The translations under genes and the position numbers were made by a program. From Sphaerodactylus townsendi (Eukaryota), in the NCBI RefSeq assembly GCF_021028975.2, contig NC_059427.1:116498001-116562000 (forward strand): a DNA stretch of 64,000 nucleotides, in the 5' to 3' direction. Shown here piece by piece: positions 8,831-56,975 of this stretch. Numbering within the stretch: the stretch's first letter is position 1; each line of letters starts with the position of its first letter. The notes beneath the pieces are model-generated. The model ran no database searches and had not been told where the DNA came from. It was given only the letters and a program-made list of their open reading frames with translations.

Positions 8831-9102
8831 TCTCCAAGATTATATTCCATTTAAAATACACATAAACTACTTACAGCTTGGTTGTTGTGGGTTTTCCGGG
8901 CTGAGTGGCCGTGGTCTTGTAAATCTTACTTACAGCTTCATTATTTATTTATTTATAATTAGTTTTCTATACCGCCCCTCCCCCGAAGGGCTCTGGGCAG
9001 TGCACAATATAAATAAAGCAACAACAGATGAAGCACACGGACAAAATACAAACTATAAATTAAACAATATAGGCTCCATTAGCCATAACACTATTGTTTA
9101 TC

Positions 9103-37252: not shown

Positions 37253-38113
37253 TTTCCAGCATACCATCAGCAACACTATAAAGTAAGAATACAAAATGGC
37301 TGTTCCAAGAACGCAACTGCAATTTATAGAGAGGACAGGGATGATTCAGGTAACAAGTCAACAAGATTGTAGTTACATTATAGAAATCCATGAATTAACT
37401 GACCACAGATGGATAACTGACAGGATTTTGAAACAGATTAGTACTAGGCAATGTGTGAAAAAAGTTCTGGTTTGTTTCAGTAGCCTTTACTTTACCAGAT
37501 CTCAAGATACTGTAGTGAATGCCAGTGCACTATGGAATATTTCTGAATCCAAAGTTTAATCTTGATATTGGCAAGGAAAAAGCAGAATGGCTAGTTTGTC
37601 TTGAGTCTTAAAGCAGAGCAAAGTCCTTGCAAGTGTATGAAGACAGAGCAAGTTGTGGGTGAAGCCCTCTTACAGTCAATATGTGTAAGATTTAACACCA
37701 GGAAACCGAAACTTTCCCAGAGTTGCCAACTCCATGTCAAGAGAAAATCCAGCAACTTTCTGTGATTTTCCCAGTTTTTCTATTAAGTACAAAAAAAGCA
37801 CAGCATATCAATTTGTGCATGACTCTGACATTTTTTTCTTTAAAAAGTACAAACTAGTTCGGTCTTACCTTCTCAACATAAACTGAGCAAACAATCTCAT
37901 CCTTTTAAAAGTGTTACGCAGTAGAAAGAAGATATAAAGCACTATTGGGCAATATCAGCTACAGCACTGTTAAGTCCTTTCACATAGTTAGAGCAAGACA
38001 AATAGATATTTCTTTTGATTGAACTGATTACTTCTAAAATGGATTTGAACCCTCTCTCTGAACCAAACCAAAGAGTTTTGATTCCCTGGTTACACAGACT
38101 AAATCTTAGTTAC

Positions 38114-38212
38114 CTCAGCTAGGTATGAGACCTTTGGTGGTGCTCCCTTAAGATCCAAGTGCACCAGACGTAGTTCAAAGGGAGAAGAACTCATCACTCT
38201 GTTTTCTTCCAT
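38114..38212 (-). CDS. HEXD: HEXD coding exon 1 (ATG 38212; alternative ATG 38194)
   Basis: [33 protein letters not shown]|gtaact; [12 protein letters not shown] is the HEXD N-terminal motif. Confidence 0.94.
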
Positions 38213-38559
38213 GTTTCCTGCAGGATAACTGTAAGAAGCAAAACCAACTGTTACACCTGGAGCAGTAGCAAAATTACAAATAGGCTCATTTCCCCACATG
38301 ATGAAATGACAATTTTAAAAAACAGAAACTCATTGGCTGCCTTTCCAAGCAGAGATGGCACAGTGAGCAGGATGTGTAGAACTGGGATGCAGGAGTTGAG
38401 AAGTAAAAATTTGCAGTCTTGCAACTTGCTTCAACCAACTTCCACAGATGTCAACAGAACTTCATTCCAATGCAGAACACCCAGACTTGAGGTTTGAAGA
38501 ACTGTACAGCTGAAAGGAGGCTTAAGCCCTGTACTGCCTTAATTATAGAGATCTGTGTG

Positions 38560-38760
38560 TATGAAGTGCCAAGTCACAGCTGACTTATGGCAACCCAGTA
38601 GGGTTTTCAAAGGCAAGAGACTACCAGAGACGATTTGCTATAGCTTTCCTCTGAATAGCAGAGGTATGGTGGTCTCCCATCCAAGTACTAGTCAGATGCA
38701 CCCTGCTTAGCTTCTGAGATCTGTCAAGATCAAGCTAGCCTGTGCCATACAGGTCAGGAC
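38560..38760 (-). mobile_element. 5S rRNA-headed SINE (5S-Sauria-like); truncated relative at ~5782-5922
   Basis: ggtctcccatccaagtacta...ccctgcttagcttctgagatc is antisense 5S internal control region, joined to an RTE-type tail. Confidence 0.75.
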
Positions 38761-38796
38761 AATAGTAGAGATCAGCCATACCCAAATTAATTATAC

Positions 38797-38915
38797 TCAA
38801 TGTATTGTCGAAGGCTTTCATGGCCGGATTCAACTGGTTGTTGTGGGTTTTCCGGGCTGTGTGGCTGTGATCTTGTTCCTAACAAGTCAACAGCCCAGAA
38901 AACCCAATCATCAAT
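38797..38915 (-). mobile_element. Short Penelope pLTR-terminus remnant with inverted piece
   Basis: aatgtattgtcgaaggctttcatggccgga is the reverse complement (1 mismatch) of the PLE 3' end at ~43483-43512. Confidence 0.7.
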
Positions 38916-39339
38916 AATGAATGTCTTTTTGCAGAGATTAAAACCCCCCCAGTGAAATTGACACAAGCAGTAAGATTTATGTGGTGCTGAGCAGACTGAT
39001 GCTGGGAGGAAGCCTGCCTAGATTCCCAGCCTTGACATTGAAAAATGAAAAGTTCGTTTGGCTCTTGTTGCATTCAGATTCATCATACCAGGAAGAAGAC
39101 TTCCTAAGTTCTTATATTACAAGCATGGCCGTGAATGAAGCACAAATTCAGCATTTTACAGGTAACCCCTCTTCCTGGCTGACGTGCGACAGATGCAATA
39201 GGACATGCCACAGAAAATAACAATAACGATATATTGCCTCTGGAATACAAATTAGTCAACATTTTAATAATTTTGGCTGTTCTGGATTAAGACTCGCGTA
39301 CTCCGCTTTTGCATGCAATTGTAGCCTTTCTAGACTTCC

Positions 39340-39780
39340 CACCTGTCTCTTTTGCACTGCGCCCCTGCAACTCTCCCTTCCTCTCCAGCGCGTCGATCTC
39401 CGTCTCTGCACTCTAACCAGCTAGCGTGCCCTAGTTTTCCGCTCTCTTTCTCCGACTTCGGTTGCTTCTGTCTGATGCTCTCTCAGGGGCTTTCGCGTCG
39501 GGGAACGTTCATCCTGATTGGTCACTCGCCTTTGCCTATCCCGCGCCTGCGTAGTGGCTGCCAGGCTGTGCCGCATCAGTGTAAGCCGGGTAACGCGATG
39601 GCTGCTCAGCGTCGGGCCGGTTCCCGGGCTGCAGCGAGCGGTGGGGCTGGCGCGGGTGCCCCGGGAGAGGAGCGCCGACGCCGAAGCAGGTACCCTTGGG
39701 GAGAGGGAGAGAGTCCCGCTGAGAGGCGGTGTTTGCTCTTGCTTCCAGGGAGGTGGTAGCGCGAGCATGCCAGGGACTAT
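39340..39780. promoter_or_regulatory. CpG island / bidirectional promoter shared by HEXD (non-coding exon ending at 39343, minus) and OGFOD3
   Basis: High CpG density; reverse CCAAT (GATTGG ~39516); minus-strand donor CAG|GTGGGA at 39343; OGFOD3 ATG at 39598. Confidence 0.8.
39598..39689 (+). CDS. OGFOD3: OGFOD3 (2-oxoglutarate/Fe-dependent oxygenase domain protein 3) coding exon 1
   Basis: MAAQRRAGSRAAASGGAGAGAPGEERRRRS (human MAPQRRAA...ERRNRS); AG|gtaccc donor, phase 2 matches exon 2. Confidence 0.9.
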
Positions 39781-40093
39781 GGAATATGCTGCCACAGGAG
39801 GTGGTGATGGCCACTAACCTGGATAGCTTTAAAAGGGGCTTGGACAGATTTATGGAGAAGTCAATCTATTCTATGGCTACCAATCTTGACCCTCTTTGAT
39901 CTGAGATTGCAAATGCCTTAGAAGACCAGGTGCTCGGGAGCAGCAGCAGCAGAAGGCCATTGCTTTCACATCCTGCATGTGAACTCCCAAAGGCACCTGG
40001 TGGGCCACTGCGAGTAGCAGAGTGCTGGACTAGATGGACTCTAGATCCATCTAGATCAAGCCAGATCCAGCTGGCTTGTTCTTATGTTCTTAT
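39780..40093 (+). mobile_element. CR1 LINE 3' end, same subfamily as 6560-6966
   Basis: Near-identical to the reverse complement of 6560-6865; ends ...CTTATGTTCTTATG. Confidence 0.9.
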
Positions 40094-40674
40094 GACTCTG
40101 TGGCTGCGTGGCTGCGATGCACACGGGTCTGGGGTAAAAAGACCCGATTGTACTTAGGGGGGTTAGCTTACCTTGGAGCAAGGCCTGCACAGCACCGGGG
40201 TTGCATGTATTTTATTATCTTCCTTACCCCGAGCCAGGTGGTTAAGAGAGGTGAACGGCACTCAGGTCAGGCTGTTTCCTTCTATTATGCTAAGTATCCT
40301 AGAGTGGTTGTCCGCATGACTTCTCATGCATGCTGTGGAGGTGAAGTATTTAAACCAGACATTGCGTGTTCACTTACCAATGTATTTTATTTACGTTTCC
40401 AGTATAATTATAGTCAAAGTAATCAAATCAATACAAACCTTTTTGTGGACCAGATTCCCCCCCCCCCCCCCCCCCCGAATCAGAAGGACTGGTGTAGAAA
40501 TATAGATGAATAAGGTGGTGAAATGCTTTGGGGGTAGATTAAGCTATACCACTTCAGACAGTGGGTAAAGGATTAGAATTGTCCATGTTGACTTCTGGTG
40601 CTGATTTACAATTAGTCAGGAACATATCATCTCTGACCCATAGTGCTCTGACACACACCTTTTCTAGAAATAGA

Positions 40675-40958
40675 TCAACTAGAACACGGAGTAATGGATT
40701 CAAGGTGCAGTAAAAGAGATTCCACCTAAACATTAGAAAGAACTCTCTGACTGTGAGAGCTGTTCAGCAGTGGAATTAACTGCCTCAGAGAGTGATGGAA
40801 TCTCCTTCTTTGGAGATTTTTAAGCAGAGGTTGGATGACCATATGTTAGGAGAGCTTTGATTGTGTGTTCCTGCATGGCAGGGGGTTGGACTTGATGGAC
40901 CTTGTGGTCTCTTCCAACTCTATTATTCTATGATTCAATATTCTATTATTCTATATTA
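40675..40958 (+). mobile_element. CR1 LINE 3' end, second subfamily
   Basis: RTRSNGFK...WN.LP..V.ESPSLEIFKQRLD-like remnant; ATTCTAT(G/T) repeat tail. Confidence 0.85.
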
Positions 40959-42011
40959 TAGTGTTACTTTTGATTTATGGGGTGTGTTGAACCATACAAT
41001 TCATCTGATGGAATGGCATTTCCCTGAGTGGAAGATGGGTTGGTAATTTGCAGATTCCTGTTTCTCATGGCGAATTCATATTTTGTCCTCTGTGCTGTTC
41101 TTGAGCATCTGCTGATGTCCAAGAACAACATGGCAGGGGAGACTTATTTTGCCACAGCAGAGGGATGAAATGGGAAAGTCCTGCTTTGTGGTTGAATACA
41201 TCCCAGTTTATTATTTTGTTGCTCAATCAAAGATTGTCTCTTAAAACTGACTGCAGTTACAGAAGAGGGGTGATCAGCTGCTGACTTCTCTCCCTGTCCT
41301 TCACCATGAATGATTGCTGGAAACTGGGGGAATGGGAGCTTTGGATCAGTCAGAGCCAAATCTAGGCACAATGGAGAGATATTTCTTGCTCTCCTTTCAT
41401 ATTATAACGTGATATAATGCAGGGATCCTCAGTGTTCTATTTGAATTGACTATCTGTGCAGGCTTTAAGTGTAGGACCATAGGGGATATAATTTCTTCTT
41501 CCACTCTAAGGTTTTGACAGCTGGGTCAGTGTCTGCTGCATTGGAAGTGATGCTGCATTGAAACACTTTGGCTTTCAGCATATGCACAGTGTTTTAATAC
41601 ATGTGAGAGTACTTTACGAGATTGTCTTTGTTATATTTTGCTGTAACTACTCATTCTGGTGTGGATGACCTGGGGTTGACATTTCTGTAACAAACTAATC
41701 AGTTTGTACTTCTTTGGGAGTGTTTTTTTCCTCTTCATTGTTGCTTGGTAATGCTCGCTGGCAACTATCCCTTGGTGTTGTCCCCCTGTCATGGGAAAAC
41801 TGCCTGTGTAACTCTTTCACAAACTATATTGTTTAGAAGGTGGAACACAGGTGTTCAGATTCTCTAGGGAATTTAGAAAAATAAATATCTGTAGTTTACT
41901 GTGTCTTTCCATTGTAGAATGAAATGCTGGAGACTAATTTGTTAACATTTTCAGGATGGTTGGGTGCTGTGTGGTTTCCGGGCTGTATGGCCGTGTTCTA
42001 GCAGCATTCTC

Positions 42012-42054
42012 TCCTGACGTTTCGCCTGCGTCTGTGGCTGGCATCTTCAGAGGA
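42012..42054 (-). ncRNA. Identical hammerhead motif on the opposite strand (inverted pLTR)
   Basis: Exact reverse complement of 43383-43425. Confidence 0.75.
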
Positions 42055-43382
42055 TCTGATGTTGGATCAGATGTTTGTGGATCAGAGGATCTGATGTTGG
42101 ATCAGACGTCTGTGGCTGGCATCTTCAGAGGATCTGATGTTTTGAGAAACAAGCCCTGAAAACAGCACCAAAAAAGCCCACCATATAGTTCCGTTATGTG
42201 GATGACACATTCACCATTTGGAGCCACGGAGAAGAAGAACTAAACAAGTTCCTGGATCATATCAACAAGATCCACCCAAACATCCAATTTACTATGGAGA
42301 AAGAAAATGAAGGAAAACTGCCATTTTTAGATGTTTTAGTCATCCGCAAACCAAACCAGCAATTGGGACACACAGTATACAGAAAACCTACTCACACAGA
42401 CAGATATCTACACAAAAACTCCAATCACCATCCAGGGCAAAAAAGGAGCACCATAAAAACTGTGGTACATCGCGCAAACAGAATCTGTGAACCTCACCTC
42501 CTACAAGATGAATTGAATCACCTAAACAGGGCTCTACAGGCTAATGGTTACTCTAATACAGAAATCAGAAGGGCTGCAAGACCAAGAACAAGCCACATGA
42601 ACAAAGATAAAGAGCCATCTAGAGGGAAGGTGTTCTTACCATACATCAAGGGAACCACTGATCGCATAGGAAAACTGATGAAGAAGCACAACCTACAAAC
42701 AATCTACAGACCCACTAAGAAAATTCAACAGATGCTACGTTCAGCAAAGGATAAGAGGGATCCTTTAGCTACTGCAGGAGTCTATCGTGATACCATGCAG
42801 CTGTGGGACAAGTCTACATAGGGAACTCACCAACGCAGCGCATGGCTGGGTGACATCGCATCAAAGAACACGAAAGGCACTGCAGACTATTTCAGCCAGA
42901 AAAATCAGCAATAGCAGAACACATGATAAACCAACCTGGACATAGAATATTATTTGAAAAAACAGAAATTCTGGACCACTCTGAAAGCCACTACGTCAGA
43001 CTACACAGAGAAGCAATTGAAATCCATAGGCACATGGACAATTTTAACAGGAAGGAAGAAACTATGAAAATGAACAGAACTTGGCTGCCAGTGTTGAAAA
43101 ATACTAGGGTCAAGACTATGTCAAACCAGCTCCACACAAACACAGGATGACCATAGACAAAAGAAACAAAGGCCAGGATACTTCTATTCAGATGCTCCCA
43201 CCAGTGACCTTGCTATCTACAGGGTTACTCCCAGGCTATAGTCTTCATTGTTACTCATACTTCTATTCAGATGCCCTCAACTATTGACCTGGTTGCCGCC
43301 TTTGTTACTCACAGACAAGGTTTCCCCACCCACCCTGGACACTCCAACAGATATATACTCCACTTGCTTTCCCAACATCAGA

Positions 43383-43425
43383 TCCTCTGAAGATGCCAGC
43401 CACAGACGCAGGCGAAACGTCAGGA
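43383..43425 (+). ncRNA. Minimal type I hammerhead ribozyme in Penelope pLTR
   Basis: UCCU-CUGAAGA-U-GCC...GGC-GAAA-CG-UC-AGGA: stem I UCCU/AGGA, stem II GCC/GGC, palindromic ACGU stem III, predicted cleavage after GUC at 43421. Confidence 0.8.
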
Positions 43426-43956
43426 GAGAATGCTGCTAGAACACGGCCATACAGCCCGGAAACCACACAGCACCCAAGTGATTCCGGCCGTGAAAGCCTT
43501 CGACAATACATTTTCAGGATGTATTGCTCATATCTGAGGCTAGATGAGGGCTTAGCTGCATCAGACTATGTGAATGAGTCCCTTGAACCAAAGCTATATT
43601 TATCAGGCAGCCTTGCTCTTTGGGTGTTTTTGCCTGTGGCTTCAGGCTTCTCGGTCCACCTTCTTCTGGGCAGCTGCAAAGTGCCTGCTTGTGGTTACAG
43701 GAGTGTGAAATGCAAGTTGATGTTAAAGATGATGGTCTAACAGTTCTCCTGGTTTTATCTTGCAATTCAGCTTTTAAATTGTATACATTTAAAACTTTTA
43801 ATGGTTCTGGATTTACTTGTTCAGTCCACGATGCTTTCTGTTAGAGCTACCCTCTGAGCTAGATCTTCAACACACTCCTTGCTCACAAAATGCATATGGC
43901 AGAGCACATACTTTTCAGTTGTTCTTTTATTTATTTATTTGTTTGTTTGTTTTTAG

Positions 43957-44174
43957 TGTTATGAAAGGAAACAGTCAGAAGAATTCTCAACGGAAATGGC
44001 TGAAAGTGGCATTCCTTCTCTCCTGTGCTGTCCTGGGCTGTCTTCTGAGTCGGAACTATTTGTTCAGTGAAGAAGGAGTTACTGAAGTTTTAGCTCATCA
44101 TGGAGAAATCCTAAAGGACAAATTTATCGAGGTACCCTGTTCAGAGGACTATGACAGCCACAAACGTTTTGAAG
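43957..44174 (+). CDS. OGFOD3: OGFOD3 coding exon 2 (TM anchor)
   Basis: VMKGNSQKNSQRKWLKVAFLLSCAVLGCLL...FIEVPCSEDYDSHKRFE; ttttag and G|gtattt; 218 nt. Confidence 0.96.
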
Positions 44175-44354
44175 GTATTTGCATGTGACCTGTGTGCTGA
44201 AGAAACCTACCTGCCCATTACTTTAATGCCAGAAGGTGGCCAAATATTAAGTCTTTTGTCTCTGCAGGAGCAACAGTTTATTTTTTTTCTTTATGTTTCC
44301 CCATCCCAATTAAGCAGTGACTAAAAAGATGTTATGTGGGTTAAGTCTATACTA

Positions 44355-44586
44355 CCGTGTTTCCCCGAATATAAGACAGTGTCTTATATTAATTTTTGCT
44401 CCCAAAGATGCGCTATGTCTTATTTTCAGGGGATGTCTTATATTTCTGTATTCTGTTCGTCAGGCATGCTTCCAAACAAAAACTTTGCTACGTCTTACTT
44501 TTGGGGGATGCCTTATTTTTCGCACTTCAGCAAAACCTCTACTACGTCTTATTTTCCGGGGATGTCTTATATTCGGGGAAACAGGG
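44355..44586. mobile_element. Tc1/mariner-superfamily MITE, same family as 29102-29354
   Basis: TIR CCGTGTTTCCCCGAATATAAGACA / TGTCTTATATTCGGGGAAACAGGG; TA flanks. Confidence 0.85.
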
Positions 44587-45269
44587 TAGGAATAGCAGCA
44601 TCCAGCATCCAAGTGTGATATAGTGTCCTTTAACAGAATCCTGAGATTTCTTTTTGTTTGACCAAAATTCTTGACATACATGCAATTCCAGATCAAATCC
44701 CCAAAAGTGAAATAAATGGTTGGAGGTGGAGTGGTAGGAACTGGAGTGGAACTTCTTTTGCAGTTCAATTTTCTCCTTAACTCCTTGCCCAAAGGTACTT
44801 TTCTACACTTTTAGAGAGCTTAGGTTAGGGATGTCCAACTCTGGTGCCCCAGTTGGCCATGCTGGCAGGGGCTGATGGGAATTGTAGTCCATGAACATCT
44901 GGGGCACCAGAGTTGTTGTTGTTGTTAATTAAATTTAGTATACCGCCCCATCCCCGAAGGGCTCTGGCTTAGATGACCCCTAATGCATGTAATTTGCGTA
45001 TTTAGCAAAGGCTCATAAGTATGTTGTTGAAATGATCACCATAACTGGAAAAGATAGTCCAAGGCAGGACTGGGCCTGCTAAAAAAAGGACCTCCTTGCA
45101 GACTAGGGGGCAGAGGGCAGAGGCCTGCCCTCAAGCTCCACCCCCCGCCTCCCTGCAAGCAAACCGGAGTTTTTGAAAGCCAGCTGGTGTGTGTGGGGGG
45201 TGGGGGGCGCGGCACTTGGAGAAGGAGTTGTCTCCAGCCGTCATTTCCTACCCATACATCTCTGTTTGC

Positions 45270-48210
45270 ATCCAAAACGTTTTAGCTTTATTACAAGCCC
45301 ATGATAAATGGTAAAACAATCCTTCATGTTCACATTTCCAACAGACATTTGGACTATTTTATATATTTTTGCTAAATTTTGTGGTGACAGTACATCATTT
45401 TATAAAAATTCTCTTTAACACTGGAACTTTTAAATTTAAGGCCCTTTATCCACATATTTTCCCAGTCATCCATTTGTATATTGTACCTAAAGTTACTTGT
45501 CAATTTTATCATACACTCTTTTCCTCATTCTTCTGGTTCACATTTCAACAGAAACTTATACATTTTTGCAATATCATCATCATCTATCTTTTCCAAAGGC
45601 AAGGCGAATTCACGACGGCTCACTTTCTACAGAGCTGCACAGGCGCTCACACTGAGGGTTTTTTTTACATTGTACAATGTGCTCACATCAGTGTGGCCTA
45701 CCCCCTCTGTTCACACTCTTCCAGTTACTCCACCCCTATTTCTCCCCTCCCTTCTCCACTCAGGTTTGGCTGTCCTCCCAACTTCCTCCCCAGTACTAGC
45801 CACCTCTTGGACAAAGTCTGTAAGTTTTATTATGATTGGTGAGATTCTTAATCTTAATCACTGTGCCTGTGTATATGTGAGAGAGTGTCTTTTTTCCTGC
45901 TCTCCTTCCCCTCCTGCCTTAAATCTTTCTGGCAGTGTCAATGGCTTCTCCTGCCACGAAGTGGTGGCAGCCTGAAATTGGGCTGGGGCTGGGGGTGGTT
46001 TGTGAGTGACTCCAGAGGGGGAAAGAGATGCTTTTGGCGGGATCAAGAAGGGAAAGAGAGAGAAAAAGCACACATGCTCATGTTTGGGAAAGGGGAGGGG
46101 ACTGACAGCATGAACATCTCATTTAACTGCTGCCGGCGTAGTAGCATCCCAAGTGGCAACTGAGTAGGTCAGGGGTTTTAGCCAGGGTCTCTCTTTCTGC
46201 CAGTCACCCAAAGCAGTGCCAGTGCCAGAGGAGCGACCCCCTCTCCTCCCCCCTCCCTGACCAAGCTGGCAAATGAACTTAATCCAAGTCACCAACCCTG
46301 TTTTCTAAACCTGTTGTATTTTTCCCACAACAGGCTTTATTGCTAGTTCTCCCATAATTCTGCTTCAGAATCAGTCCTGGGGTCTTCAAAAACCATGTAG
46401 TCTCTTATCTACTATAAATCTTTCTAATTGTGCATAGACAAATCAATAACAAGTCCTTCTGCTACTAAATCTTACCTTGATTTCACTTTACAATCCCCTT
46501 GAGAAAAATCTAGTGTGGCACAATATATTAACCATCCACTTTCAACTATCATTTCTCATCTATATAGTGCTTGTGCTGAGAGCCATAATGGTGTTTTCTG
46601 ACACTAGGTTTATATTTTTCGCATGTATAGCAAGTCTTATATAAAGATTTTTAAAATGCTTCTTGCCGTTCTATTAATAGATGTGCCGCCCAAATCTCAT
46701 GTCAAGTTCCTCTCATTCCAACAGTCTTTTAAATTTTTTTCTGACAGTCCAGAAAATTGAGTGCTTTTGAAGTACAACATTTAATTTCCATCTGAAAGTA
46801 TTAAATTTTCTGTTACAAACCAGATTTACAGGATTATGATCTGAAAAAAGTCTTTGGTAAAATTTCTACTGCAGTTACCTTAATTGTGTCTGTAGAAATC
46901 CAGATCATTTCTATTCTTGAAAGAGATCTCTGTCTTTCTGAAAAATGCATATACTCTCTTGAGTTTCCATTTTTCTGCTTCCATATATCAACCAAGCCCA
47001 AGTTGTTCATCAAATCAAAAACAGTTTTTGACAATTTACTTGTGTCTTTTTAATCATATTTTTCAGAAAATCATTTGAGGCGATACTACTCAATCCCAGT
47101 CTTCTAGCAGACATCCGCTTTCATATGGAAAGTATGTGATCTTATCAATAAGATCTTTATAAAATGTCCTCATTTGGAGCACAACTTCCCAACTTCCCAT
47201 GGGACTTTGCTTGTTATAGCAGATCGAGAATGTATTCTGTAAATCTTGTTAGCTTCCTTCTCTTCCTCTGCAAAAAGTCCAAGTCCACCAAGGCTATTAT
47301 AATCCTTTGTCTAATATCTTTATCTCATATTTTAGGAATATCTCTAAGGCCGTTTCCGCACGGCCTCCAGTCGCCCCCACGCCGCCAAGAGTTCTGGTGG
47401 CGTGGGGGCTTGTAATTTTCTTCCGCTCATAGACGCGAAGCGTGTGCAGGAGCAGGCAGAAGCTGAGGACGGCAGACTGCAGATCTGCATGGCTCAGCAA
47501 TGATGGAGTCGCCTTCTCTTCCCGCTTCACTCATCGGTGTTCTCAGTCAGCAGTTCGTTGGCCTGCCCAGAAGCCTCGCTTCATTTCGCTGCCCTCCGAC
47601 CCCCTGGAGGTCGGAGGGACAGTGTGGCTGGAAGGCGACTTCAGCAGGCTTAATGCACGCAGCGGACACACCGCGGAGTGGGCGGAGATGGAGACGAGAT
47701 GTGCCTCTCGGGCGGCGCTGATTCAAGCATCAAGCGCCGTTGGAAGACGCCTTCCTCAACAACAACCCTTTAAAGGGTTAGTTGTTTAGGGCGGACCTGA
47801 GGTCAGCTTCCTGGGGGGGAGGGAAGCGAGCCCAATTCGCCGGGCTAAGCGCTTGCAGCAGCGGCGCCACGGTGGACCAGGCGGCCTGGGGCAGCTGCTT
47901 TTTACCCCAGGCCCAGGCTTCGTTAATGCACGGTCGTATTGGAAACGGCCTAAATCTTTGATCTAATTCTTTCTCAGTTCCAACTAAATTGTCCATTTCT
48001 CTTTCCATCCTTTTATTCTGAGCTTTTGCTTTACCCTCAAAAACATCAACTTTATCATTTACTTTATTTATTTGTGTTATAGAGCTGTCCATCTGCTTTT
48101 CTGTTTGTTCTAAATTTACCAAACTTCTCATCAGTTTTCTTTTTAGATGTTTCCTACCTAATAGTAATTTGATGAAAGCAATTTTTAACATGTCAGACAT
48201 AATACCAGAA
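45270..48210 (-). mobile_element. Decayed L1-type LINE (ORF1, endonuclease and ORF2 C-terminal fragments) interrupted by nested insertions
   Basis: LVDIWK...SLSRI endonuclease-like remnant at 46834-47034; KENFYKMMY and CWKC remnants ~45300-45450; coiled-coil ORF1-like piece 47955-48200. Confidence 0.75.
47348..47950. mobile_element. Non-autonomous PIF/Harbinger-like DNA transposon nested in the L1
   Basis: TIR GGCCGTTTCC / GGAAACGGCC; TAA TSD at 47345-47347 and 47951-47953; CpG-rich interior. Confidence 0.85.
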
Positions 48211-56817: not shown

Positions 56818-56975
56818 AATGTATTATCAAAGGCTTTCATAGCTGGATTCAACTGGTTGTGGTGGGTTTTCAGGGCTGCGTGGCCGTGGTCTGGTGGCTC
56901 TTGTTCCTAACATTTCGCCTGCATCTATGGCTGGCATCTTCAGAGGTGCATTAAAGAGGGAAGTCTGTTACACAC
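56818..56975 (-). mobile_element. Solo Penelope pLTR fragment with degenerate hammerhead (56905-56947)
   Basis: Reverse strand reads CCU-CUGAAGA-U-GCC...GGC-GAAA-UG-UU-AGG; 3' end resembles the PLE terminus (gaaagcctt.ga.aatacatt). Confidence 0.75.

Follow-up and report, generated by a model that had tools for sequence, protein, structure and literature searches.

The closest described relative of the insertion reported here is the Penelope element PAc / Poseidon_Ac of Anolis carolinensis, for which the account of Frangieh et al. (2024, PMC11167929) gives an ORF that starts from stem II of a hammerhead ribozyme, a ribozyme cut 26 nt after the start codon, and RT starts that bound the tail, 111-118 nt into the ORF. 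The gecko copy has in common with this element the ORF start at stem II, the position of the cut, the RT start at 111-118 nt and a tail lying between two start sites; it is unlike it in being truncated, dead and furnished with an inverted arm, and the likeness described here is one of protein and layout. With the endonuclease-bearing Penelope insertions presented in PMC3846280 (Pen2a_Av, from a rotifer) and in Fig. 2 of PMC8557442, the gecko copy shares an inverted, 5'-truncated arm, a tail of 30-40 bp at one end, a short target-site duplication (TSD) and a palindrome or microhomology at the junction, whereas the TSD measures 12-14 bp in the gecko and 8-10 bp in the rotifer (PMC3846280). The minimal hammerheads of metazoan Penelope-like elements (PLEs), in the description of PMC4209133, have the same type I core, the same extra base before stem II and the same palindromic stem III; pairs on opposite strands stand 100-700 bp apart there, as against 1.3 kb in the gecko insert. 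Finally, Porath et al. (2017, PMC5625713) report that double-stranded RNA from Penelope copies serves as a substrate of ADAR in lizard transcripts, with over 40,000 editing sites, Penelope being the most edited LINE-type repeat in lizard brain; the predicted duplex of the gecko insert invites the comparison. The locus is a further copy of a known Penelope kind, and its mirrored layout is already in print. Taken singly it matters little, being one of hundreds of young copies; what is new with respect to the work on Pen2a_Av is the set of counts per class for one genome. In this census an active Penelope of a gecko obeys sharp rules as to where its arms end, how long its TSDs are and how its junctions are built, from which testable predictions on the integration of telomerase-related elements can be made.

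The window (the whole stretch of 64,000 nucleotides of Sphaerodactylus townsendi DNA that was analysed) carries exons of OGFOD3, a gene identified by protein search, in which the exon 2 peptide is 100% identical to the Sphaerodactylus OGFOD3 record (Pfam gave no match for this exon). Exon 2 contains an in-frame ATG and is 74% identical to its counterpart in Anolis sagrei. When the window was extended by 120 kb, the 3' end of the gene was found at about 89.1 kb, for a gene of about 50 kb. The original prediction had placed a hammerhead in intron 1, some 530 nt upstream of exon 2, and this is where it lies, the distance from the predicted cut to exon 2 being 536 nt. The features of the locus are as follows.

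39598..39689, + strand: coding part of OGFOD3 exon 1 (its translation is the N-terminus of P0121; donor GT at 39690)
39690-43956, + strand: OGFOD3 intron 1, which holds the Penelope insert
41945..41958, + strand: left TSD, 14 bp; a related species with the empty site has this sequence once
41960..42065, - strand: the shorter pLTR arm, inverted, which covers -21 to +85 of the element (counted from the start of the ORF) and lacks the 30-nt tail
42066..42141, no strand assigned: junction patch, a 7-nt fold-back plus 19-nt and 35-nt extra antisense copies of the arm
42142..43150, + strand: RT / GIY-YIG-type ORF, 3' portion, its 5' side cut off immediately ahead of the YVDD motif
43372..43477, + strand: sense pLTR segment matched by the inverted arm
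43383..43425, + strand: minimal type I hammerhead motif, located by scan and checked for base pairing, predicted cut after C43421
43478..43510, + strand: tail, to element position +118, on this sense arm only; its last bases overlap the right TSD
43508..43521, + strand: right TSD, 14 bp, identical to the left copy at 14/14 positions
43957..44174, + strand: OGFOD3 exon 2 (protein match to the OGFOD3 record)

The insert spans 41945 to 43521. The 14-bp TSD that had been proposed for it proved exact, and in a related species one contig passes directly from 41944 to 43508 and has a single TSD copy, as expected of an empty site, with 35 other letters differing in 1848 (about 2% divergence). Since the relative has a single copy at its empty site, the duplication dates from the insertion itself, which on the simplest reading is younger than the split between the two species. 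Contigs of two samples from one study, belonging to the best-matching organism (one of the two may be the source of the assembly), run from the left flank into the insert; those of another sample (X4) stop at the TSD on both sides with no bridging contig, and this sample was excluded from the empty-site evidence. The exact inverted copy is also as announced, the two arms being 106 nt long, 100% complementary and 1306 nt apart, and the original prediction had overlooked the patch of re-copied arm pieces and the lack of the 30-nt tail on the inverted arm. We consider this patch a likely result of end-joining with templated insertions, the repair pathway being our reading of its composition. The ORF piece is frameshifted near 42790-42840 and its protein cannot be made: the insert is a young, dead Penelope copy, truncated and frameshifted. 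As a side observation, the ATG at 43393 opens a frame that runs through the tail and the TSD into intron DNA (window 43393-43740, about 115 codons).

The attribution to Penelope is borne out by a 210-aa RT piece (window 42189-42818) that is 90% identical to an 836-aa Anolis protein, P0001, which carries RVT_1 and whose residue 1 aligns at ATG 43393, inside the hammerhead. The YVDD piece of a PLE-type RT is present, as are the other marks of a PLE, namely a pLTR with an inverted arm and a one-sided tail, and a short TSD. The window also aligns to P0001 residues 706-815, some homologs of which are named GIY-YIG; Pfam matched neither of the two ORF pieces of the insert, nor that part of P0001, and both pieces were identified through protein searches, the GIY-YIG label coming from the literature and from the names of homologs. 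Judged by identity to the Anolis protein and by the common layout, this is a Poseidon-type Penelope. A non-LTR retrozyme, made of non-coding tandem units devoid of an ORF, was ruled out, as a 1 kb ORF is present and no tandem unit was found. The identity to Anolis, 90% for the RT piece vs 74% for OGFOD3 exon 2, could possibly reflect horizontal transfer or strong selection on an active lineage. Insect and metagenome matches to the RT piece reach 55-66%.

The family has also left older pLTR fragments (77-85% identity, - strand) at window positions 38801-38873, 56820-56946 and 8877-8917; that at 56.9 kb falls within OGFOD3 intron 2 and was negative in the hammerhead motif scan. Intron 2 also contains two small, MITE-like inverted-repeat elements, one at 44352-44589 (27-nt arms around 184 nt) and the other at 44836-44915 (26-nt arms around 28 nt). 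Elsewhere in the genome, L095:3067-6944 is a near full-length pLTR-ORF-pLTR tandem (unit of 2826 bp) with a 0.9-kb inverted arm and an ORF broken in all frames.

The genome contains 422 exact copies of the 45-nt hammerhead sequence, and our census covers 129 other loci of 10 kb, 86 of them taken from the first 100 listed pattern matches (contigs 1-3) and 43 being top BLAST matches. That insertion is known to yield inverted pLTRs, as had been claimed, agrees with the layout described in PMC8557442 and PMC3846280, and in this family the mirror arm is routine, an inverted partner arm being present in 77 of the 129 loci; 63 of the 129 have a full hammerhead on both arms (46 of the 86 pattern-picked loci, or about 37% after halving for double ascertainment). 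A tailed arm is paired with a tail-less one in 72 of the 77 two-armed loci (two tails in 1, none in 4). Of 206 arm ends, 193 lie either at +83-88 or at +113-118, in agreement with the pair of RT start sites in print. The end of the short OGFOD3 arm, at +85, belongs to the class of 94/206 ends at +83 to +88. A TSD was found in 68 of the 77 two-armed loci, and is 12-14 bp long in 58 of these 68. Mini-palindromes of two short arms, of the 230-bp type, make up 32 of 46 double-armed loci, and the short-plus-long layout of the OGFOD3 insert is seen again at L048. The opposite ends of the arms are clustered too: 57 of 86 focal arms (L031-L110, L137-L142) have their 5' ends at -21 to -7 of the start codon, as do 33 of 59 partner arms, which were not pattern-picked. 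This clustering likely reflects a transcript start just before the hammerhead. We are confident, if not certain, of the following joint reading: the OGFOD3 insert is a young, dead Poseidon-type insertion, its mirror arm is the common insertion footprint of the family, likely made in two RT events on opposite strands, and the predicted duplex protects nothing, being in all likelihood a by-product.

The two arms do not evolve in concert. In 43 double-armed loci (the focal arm being chosen by its exact 45-nt match, with no split by orientation) they differ on average by 3.0 positions per 93 nt within a locus vs 3.2 between loci, and they are identical in 7/43; the differences are mostly C>T and G>A. 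Arms thus decay independently, so that perfect complementarity, as at OGFOD3, marks youth. Gene conversion, or selection keeping the arms identical, is ruled out by this near equality of divergence within and between loci, and the preservation of complementarity over time that one would expect of a selected lock was not found across the 43 loci. The arms of L087 and L107 differ by 12 and 8 of the 93 positions. Between the arms of L036:5783-5998, L031:4873-5154, L089 and L130, inside the TSD, we found 200-330 nt of non-element DNA, possibly captured from the host.

How could such insertions form? We tentatively favour, though we would not put it at even chances, a model in which a dimeric enzyme uses two RNA templates, its subunits starting at +118 and +85 on opposite strands of a staggered cut of 12-14 bp; synthesis would in most cases reach the end of its template at the 5' terminus of the ORF mRNA, some 13 nt ahead of the start codon, and end-joining would follow. 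At OGFOD3 the enzyme of the element would have nicked the two DNA strands 14 bp apart, to judge from the TSD (nicking of both strands in vitro, and a predicted enzyme dimer, are reported in PMC11167929). One nick would have primed copying from the +118 start, giving the long arm with its tail, and the other from the +85 start, giving the short arm without it; the arm ends are observed, and we attribute them to RT starts on the basis of PMC11167929. The short copy would have run off near the 5' end of the element mRNA, just upstream of the hammerhead, if the clustered ends are read as we propose, and host end-joining would have fused the two copies head to head, leaving the patch. Should this model be correct, it would explain the one-sided tail (72/77), the mass of solo hammerhead copies of 100-130 bp and chimeras such as L090, and would tie the two start sites seen in vitro and the predicted dimer to an inverted layout that has long lacked an explanation. 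Our literature searches brought up no papers on the subject other than those cited here.

The alternative is that one cDNA primes itself, or folds back, at the junction palindrome and so gives rise to the inverted arm, as modelled in PMC3846280; the consequence for the host would be the same under either mechanism, namely none. Many junctions do overlap at a GATC palindrome at -12 (13 of the 59 partner ends are exactly there), a 7-nt fold-back opens the junction patch of the OGFOD3 insert, and 4 of 43 loci have a rare variant common to both arms, which speaks for a shared source or for fold-back. However, a fold-back copy of the long arm should start at the 5' end of that arm, in the ORF, where the short arm of the OGFOD3 insert shares nothing with it; the partner frequently exceeds the focal arm in length; and of the 27 copies that lack a partner, 12 likewise begin at -16 to -10, with the reservation that these were ascertained to start at or before -10. 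Moreover, at L090:5856-6107 (contig C2 near 87140388), two arms of different pLTR families lie within one 13-bp TSD; they have the first 25 nt and the tail in common and are about 80% identical in between. This single case suggests, from its sequence, that two RNA templates can enter one insertion. We think that fold-back is an unlikely origin for the mirror arm.

We now come to the ribozyme itself. The minimal type I hammerhead with a palindromic stem III that the original prediction had described at 43383-43425 was recovered by motif scan and pairing check: stem I is formed by 43383-86 and 43422-25, followed by CUGAAGA at 43387, stem II (43395-43413), GAAA (43414-17) and the palindrome ACGU (43417-20), with the ORF start ATG 43393 inside the motif. 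Scanning both strands of the window gave this hammerhead at 43387 (+) and a second one at 42050 (-), from which position the inverted arm carries a complete core on the - strand; a looser scan added one weak, unrelated match. The recommended search with hammerhead models, run through Rfam, had a different outcome from the motif scan: there was no hammerhead match at E<=5 in 38000-48000 (five chance matches were set aside). We therefore call the ribozyme from the motif scan, together with its agreement with the layout published for Anolis.

A fold of the sense transcript of the insert puts all 106 pairs of the two arms in the minimum-energy structure, with a mean probability of 0.999 and a duplex of -234 kcal/mol, so that pairing of the antisense arm with the ribozyme, as first proposed, stands as a prediction. 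The hammerhead would thus be buried in the paired arms of the OGFOD3 pre-mRNA, and splicing would remove the intron with the insert in it. From this came the idea that the arm makes a self-cleaving insertion tolerable, the stronger version being that the hammerhead cuts the pre-mRNA with the help of a protein or of chaperones, that the earlier-transcribed arm blocks it, and that locked sense copies survive better. There is something to be said for it: a protein can switch on the Anolis ribozyme (PMC11167929), and related retrozymes are reported to avoid introns in a 2026 preprint. But the published monomers are inactive. Cervera and de la Pena (2014, PMC4209133) report no cleavage by a single minimal hammerhead and little by dimers, and Frangieh et al. 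describe a cut that occurred only with the element protein and no RNA-seq reads ending at the cut site (PMC11167929). The motif folded alone has a stem I pairing of 0.03, and a motif scan of OGFOD3 (39.6-89.1 kb) gave no second sense-strand hammerhead, hence no dimer partner; a lone hammerhead in this intron would likely be silent as a monomer without the protein. PMC2995048 reports one study in which splicing survived the cutting of an intron by a hammerhead (Dye 2006), and another in which a very fast ribozyme could abort it (Fong 2009). Finally, the opposite strand gains a hammerhead with the arm, which would make any lock symmetric and automatic, and arms at other loci decay freely.

If locks were selected, unlocked copies should be rare in the sense orientation within genes, a bias that the original prediction had put forward as a check. 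We sorted copies into three classes (unlocked, partly locked, double-armed) and took the T-A skew of the flanks, in hammerhead orientation, as a proxy of the transcribed strand; GC skew was abandoned after a G-run outlier at L067. T-A skew was positive in 5/5 OGFOD3 bins (0.047-0.096) and in 10 of 14 Pfam-assigned genes (mean 0.030). For 55 unlocked copies it was +0.0025 +/- 0.0059 (27 positive, 28 negative), which shows no orientation bias by this measure, with a power that is modest, as the value expected if sense copies were fully purged is -0.005 to -0.015 (z of 1.3-2.9) and partial purging would be invisible; one unlocked locus (L133), for which there was no strand call, was left out of the masked skew test.

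The strand of the surrounding gene could be assigned from exons for 18 of the 129 loci (233 candidate exons; 14 loci by Pfam, 2 by PDB, 2 tentatively), leaving 111 without. The latter two are L150, which we take to be in a DIP2-like gene (the PDB search was empty), and L077, presumably in a PPIG-like gene. Double-armed copies are not enriched in genes (8/18 gene-assigned loci vs 55/111 others, p=0.80). Unlocked sense copies do exist in introns: among the gene-assigned unlocked copies 2 are sense and 4 antisense, the former being L066 and L079. L066 lies 3.6 kb upstream of the GRIK2 exon that encodes residues 696-770 of 908, and L079 lies 3.6 kb downstream of the LY75 exon that encodes residues 782-833 of 1693; in each the motif is intact, and the 10 kb examined contain no antisense match longer than 9 nt. 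On the other side, the partly locked gene-assigned copies are all sense (4/4; Fisher p=0.076 against the unlocked ones; in L077 the partner reaches no further than the last base of stem I, and moving this locus to the unlocked class gives p=0.20). All sampled copies are young, which leaves little time for selection. Our view is that the lock, although physically plausible, is likely idle and is not required, and that the proposed gain in tolerance is not supported, with a small selective effect persisting as a weak hint in these counts; a lock with an effect on fitness is very improbable, the least probable of the explanations discussed here. If it were real, nature would here offer a transposon that silences its ribozyme within host genes; the evidence favours a by-product. 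Our literature search returned no published work treating an intronic hammerhead, antisense, a retrotransposon and orientation together.

Could the insert affect OGFOD3 in some other way? The duplex might draw ADAR or slow the splicing of intron 1, or the pLTR might start a transcript into exon 2. The paired arms, a perfect 106-bp duplex with its halves 1.3 kb apart, would be an ADAR substrate if one goes by the published lizard data, so that this part of the original prediction is plausible, with the reservation that editing of lizard Penelope, which is heavy, had already been reported (PMC5625713). The clustered 5' ends suggest a start site near 43380, and a transcript started in the pLTR could splice or read into exon 2 and its in-frame ATG. 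However, the sense strand of the insert has no AAUAAA/AUUAAA and no strong acceptor-like tract, and the sense arm ends 480 nt before the acceptor. We judge such an effect on OGFOD3 improbable, somewhat more so than fold-back.

Finally, copies of the family, young and old, recur in clusters within a few kb (L032, L060, L068, L089, L101), and at L034:5501-6129 two insertions of the family lie 270 bp apart in a PRPF3 intron.
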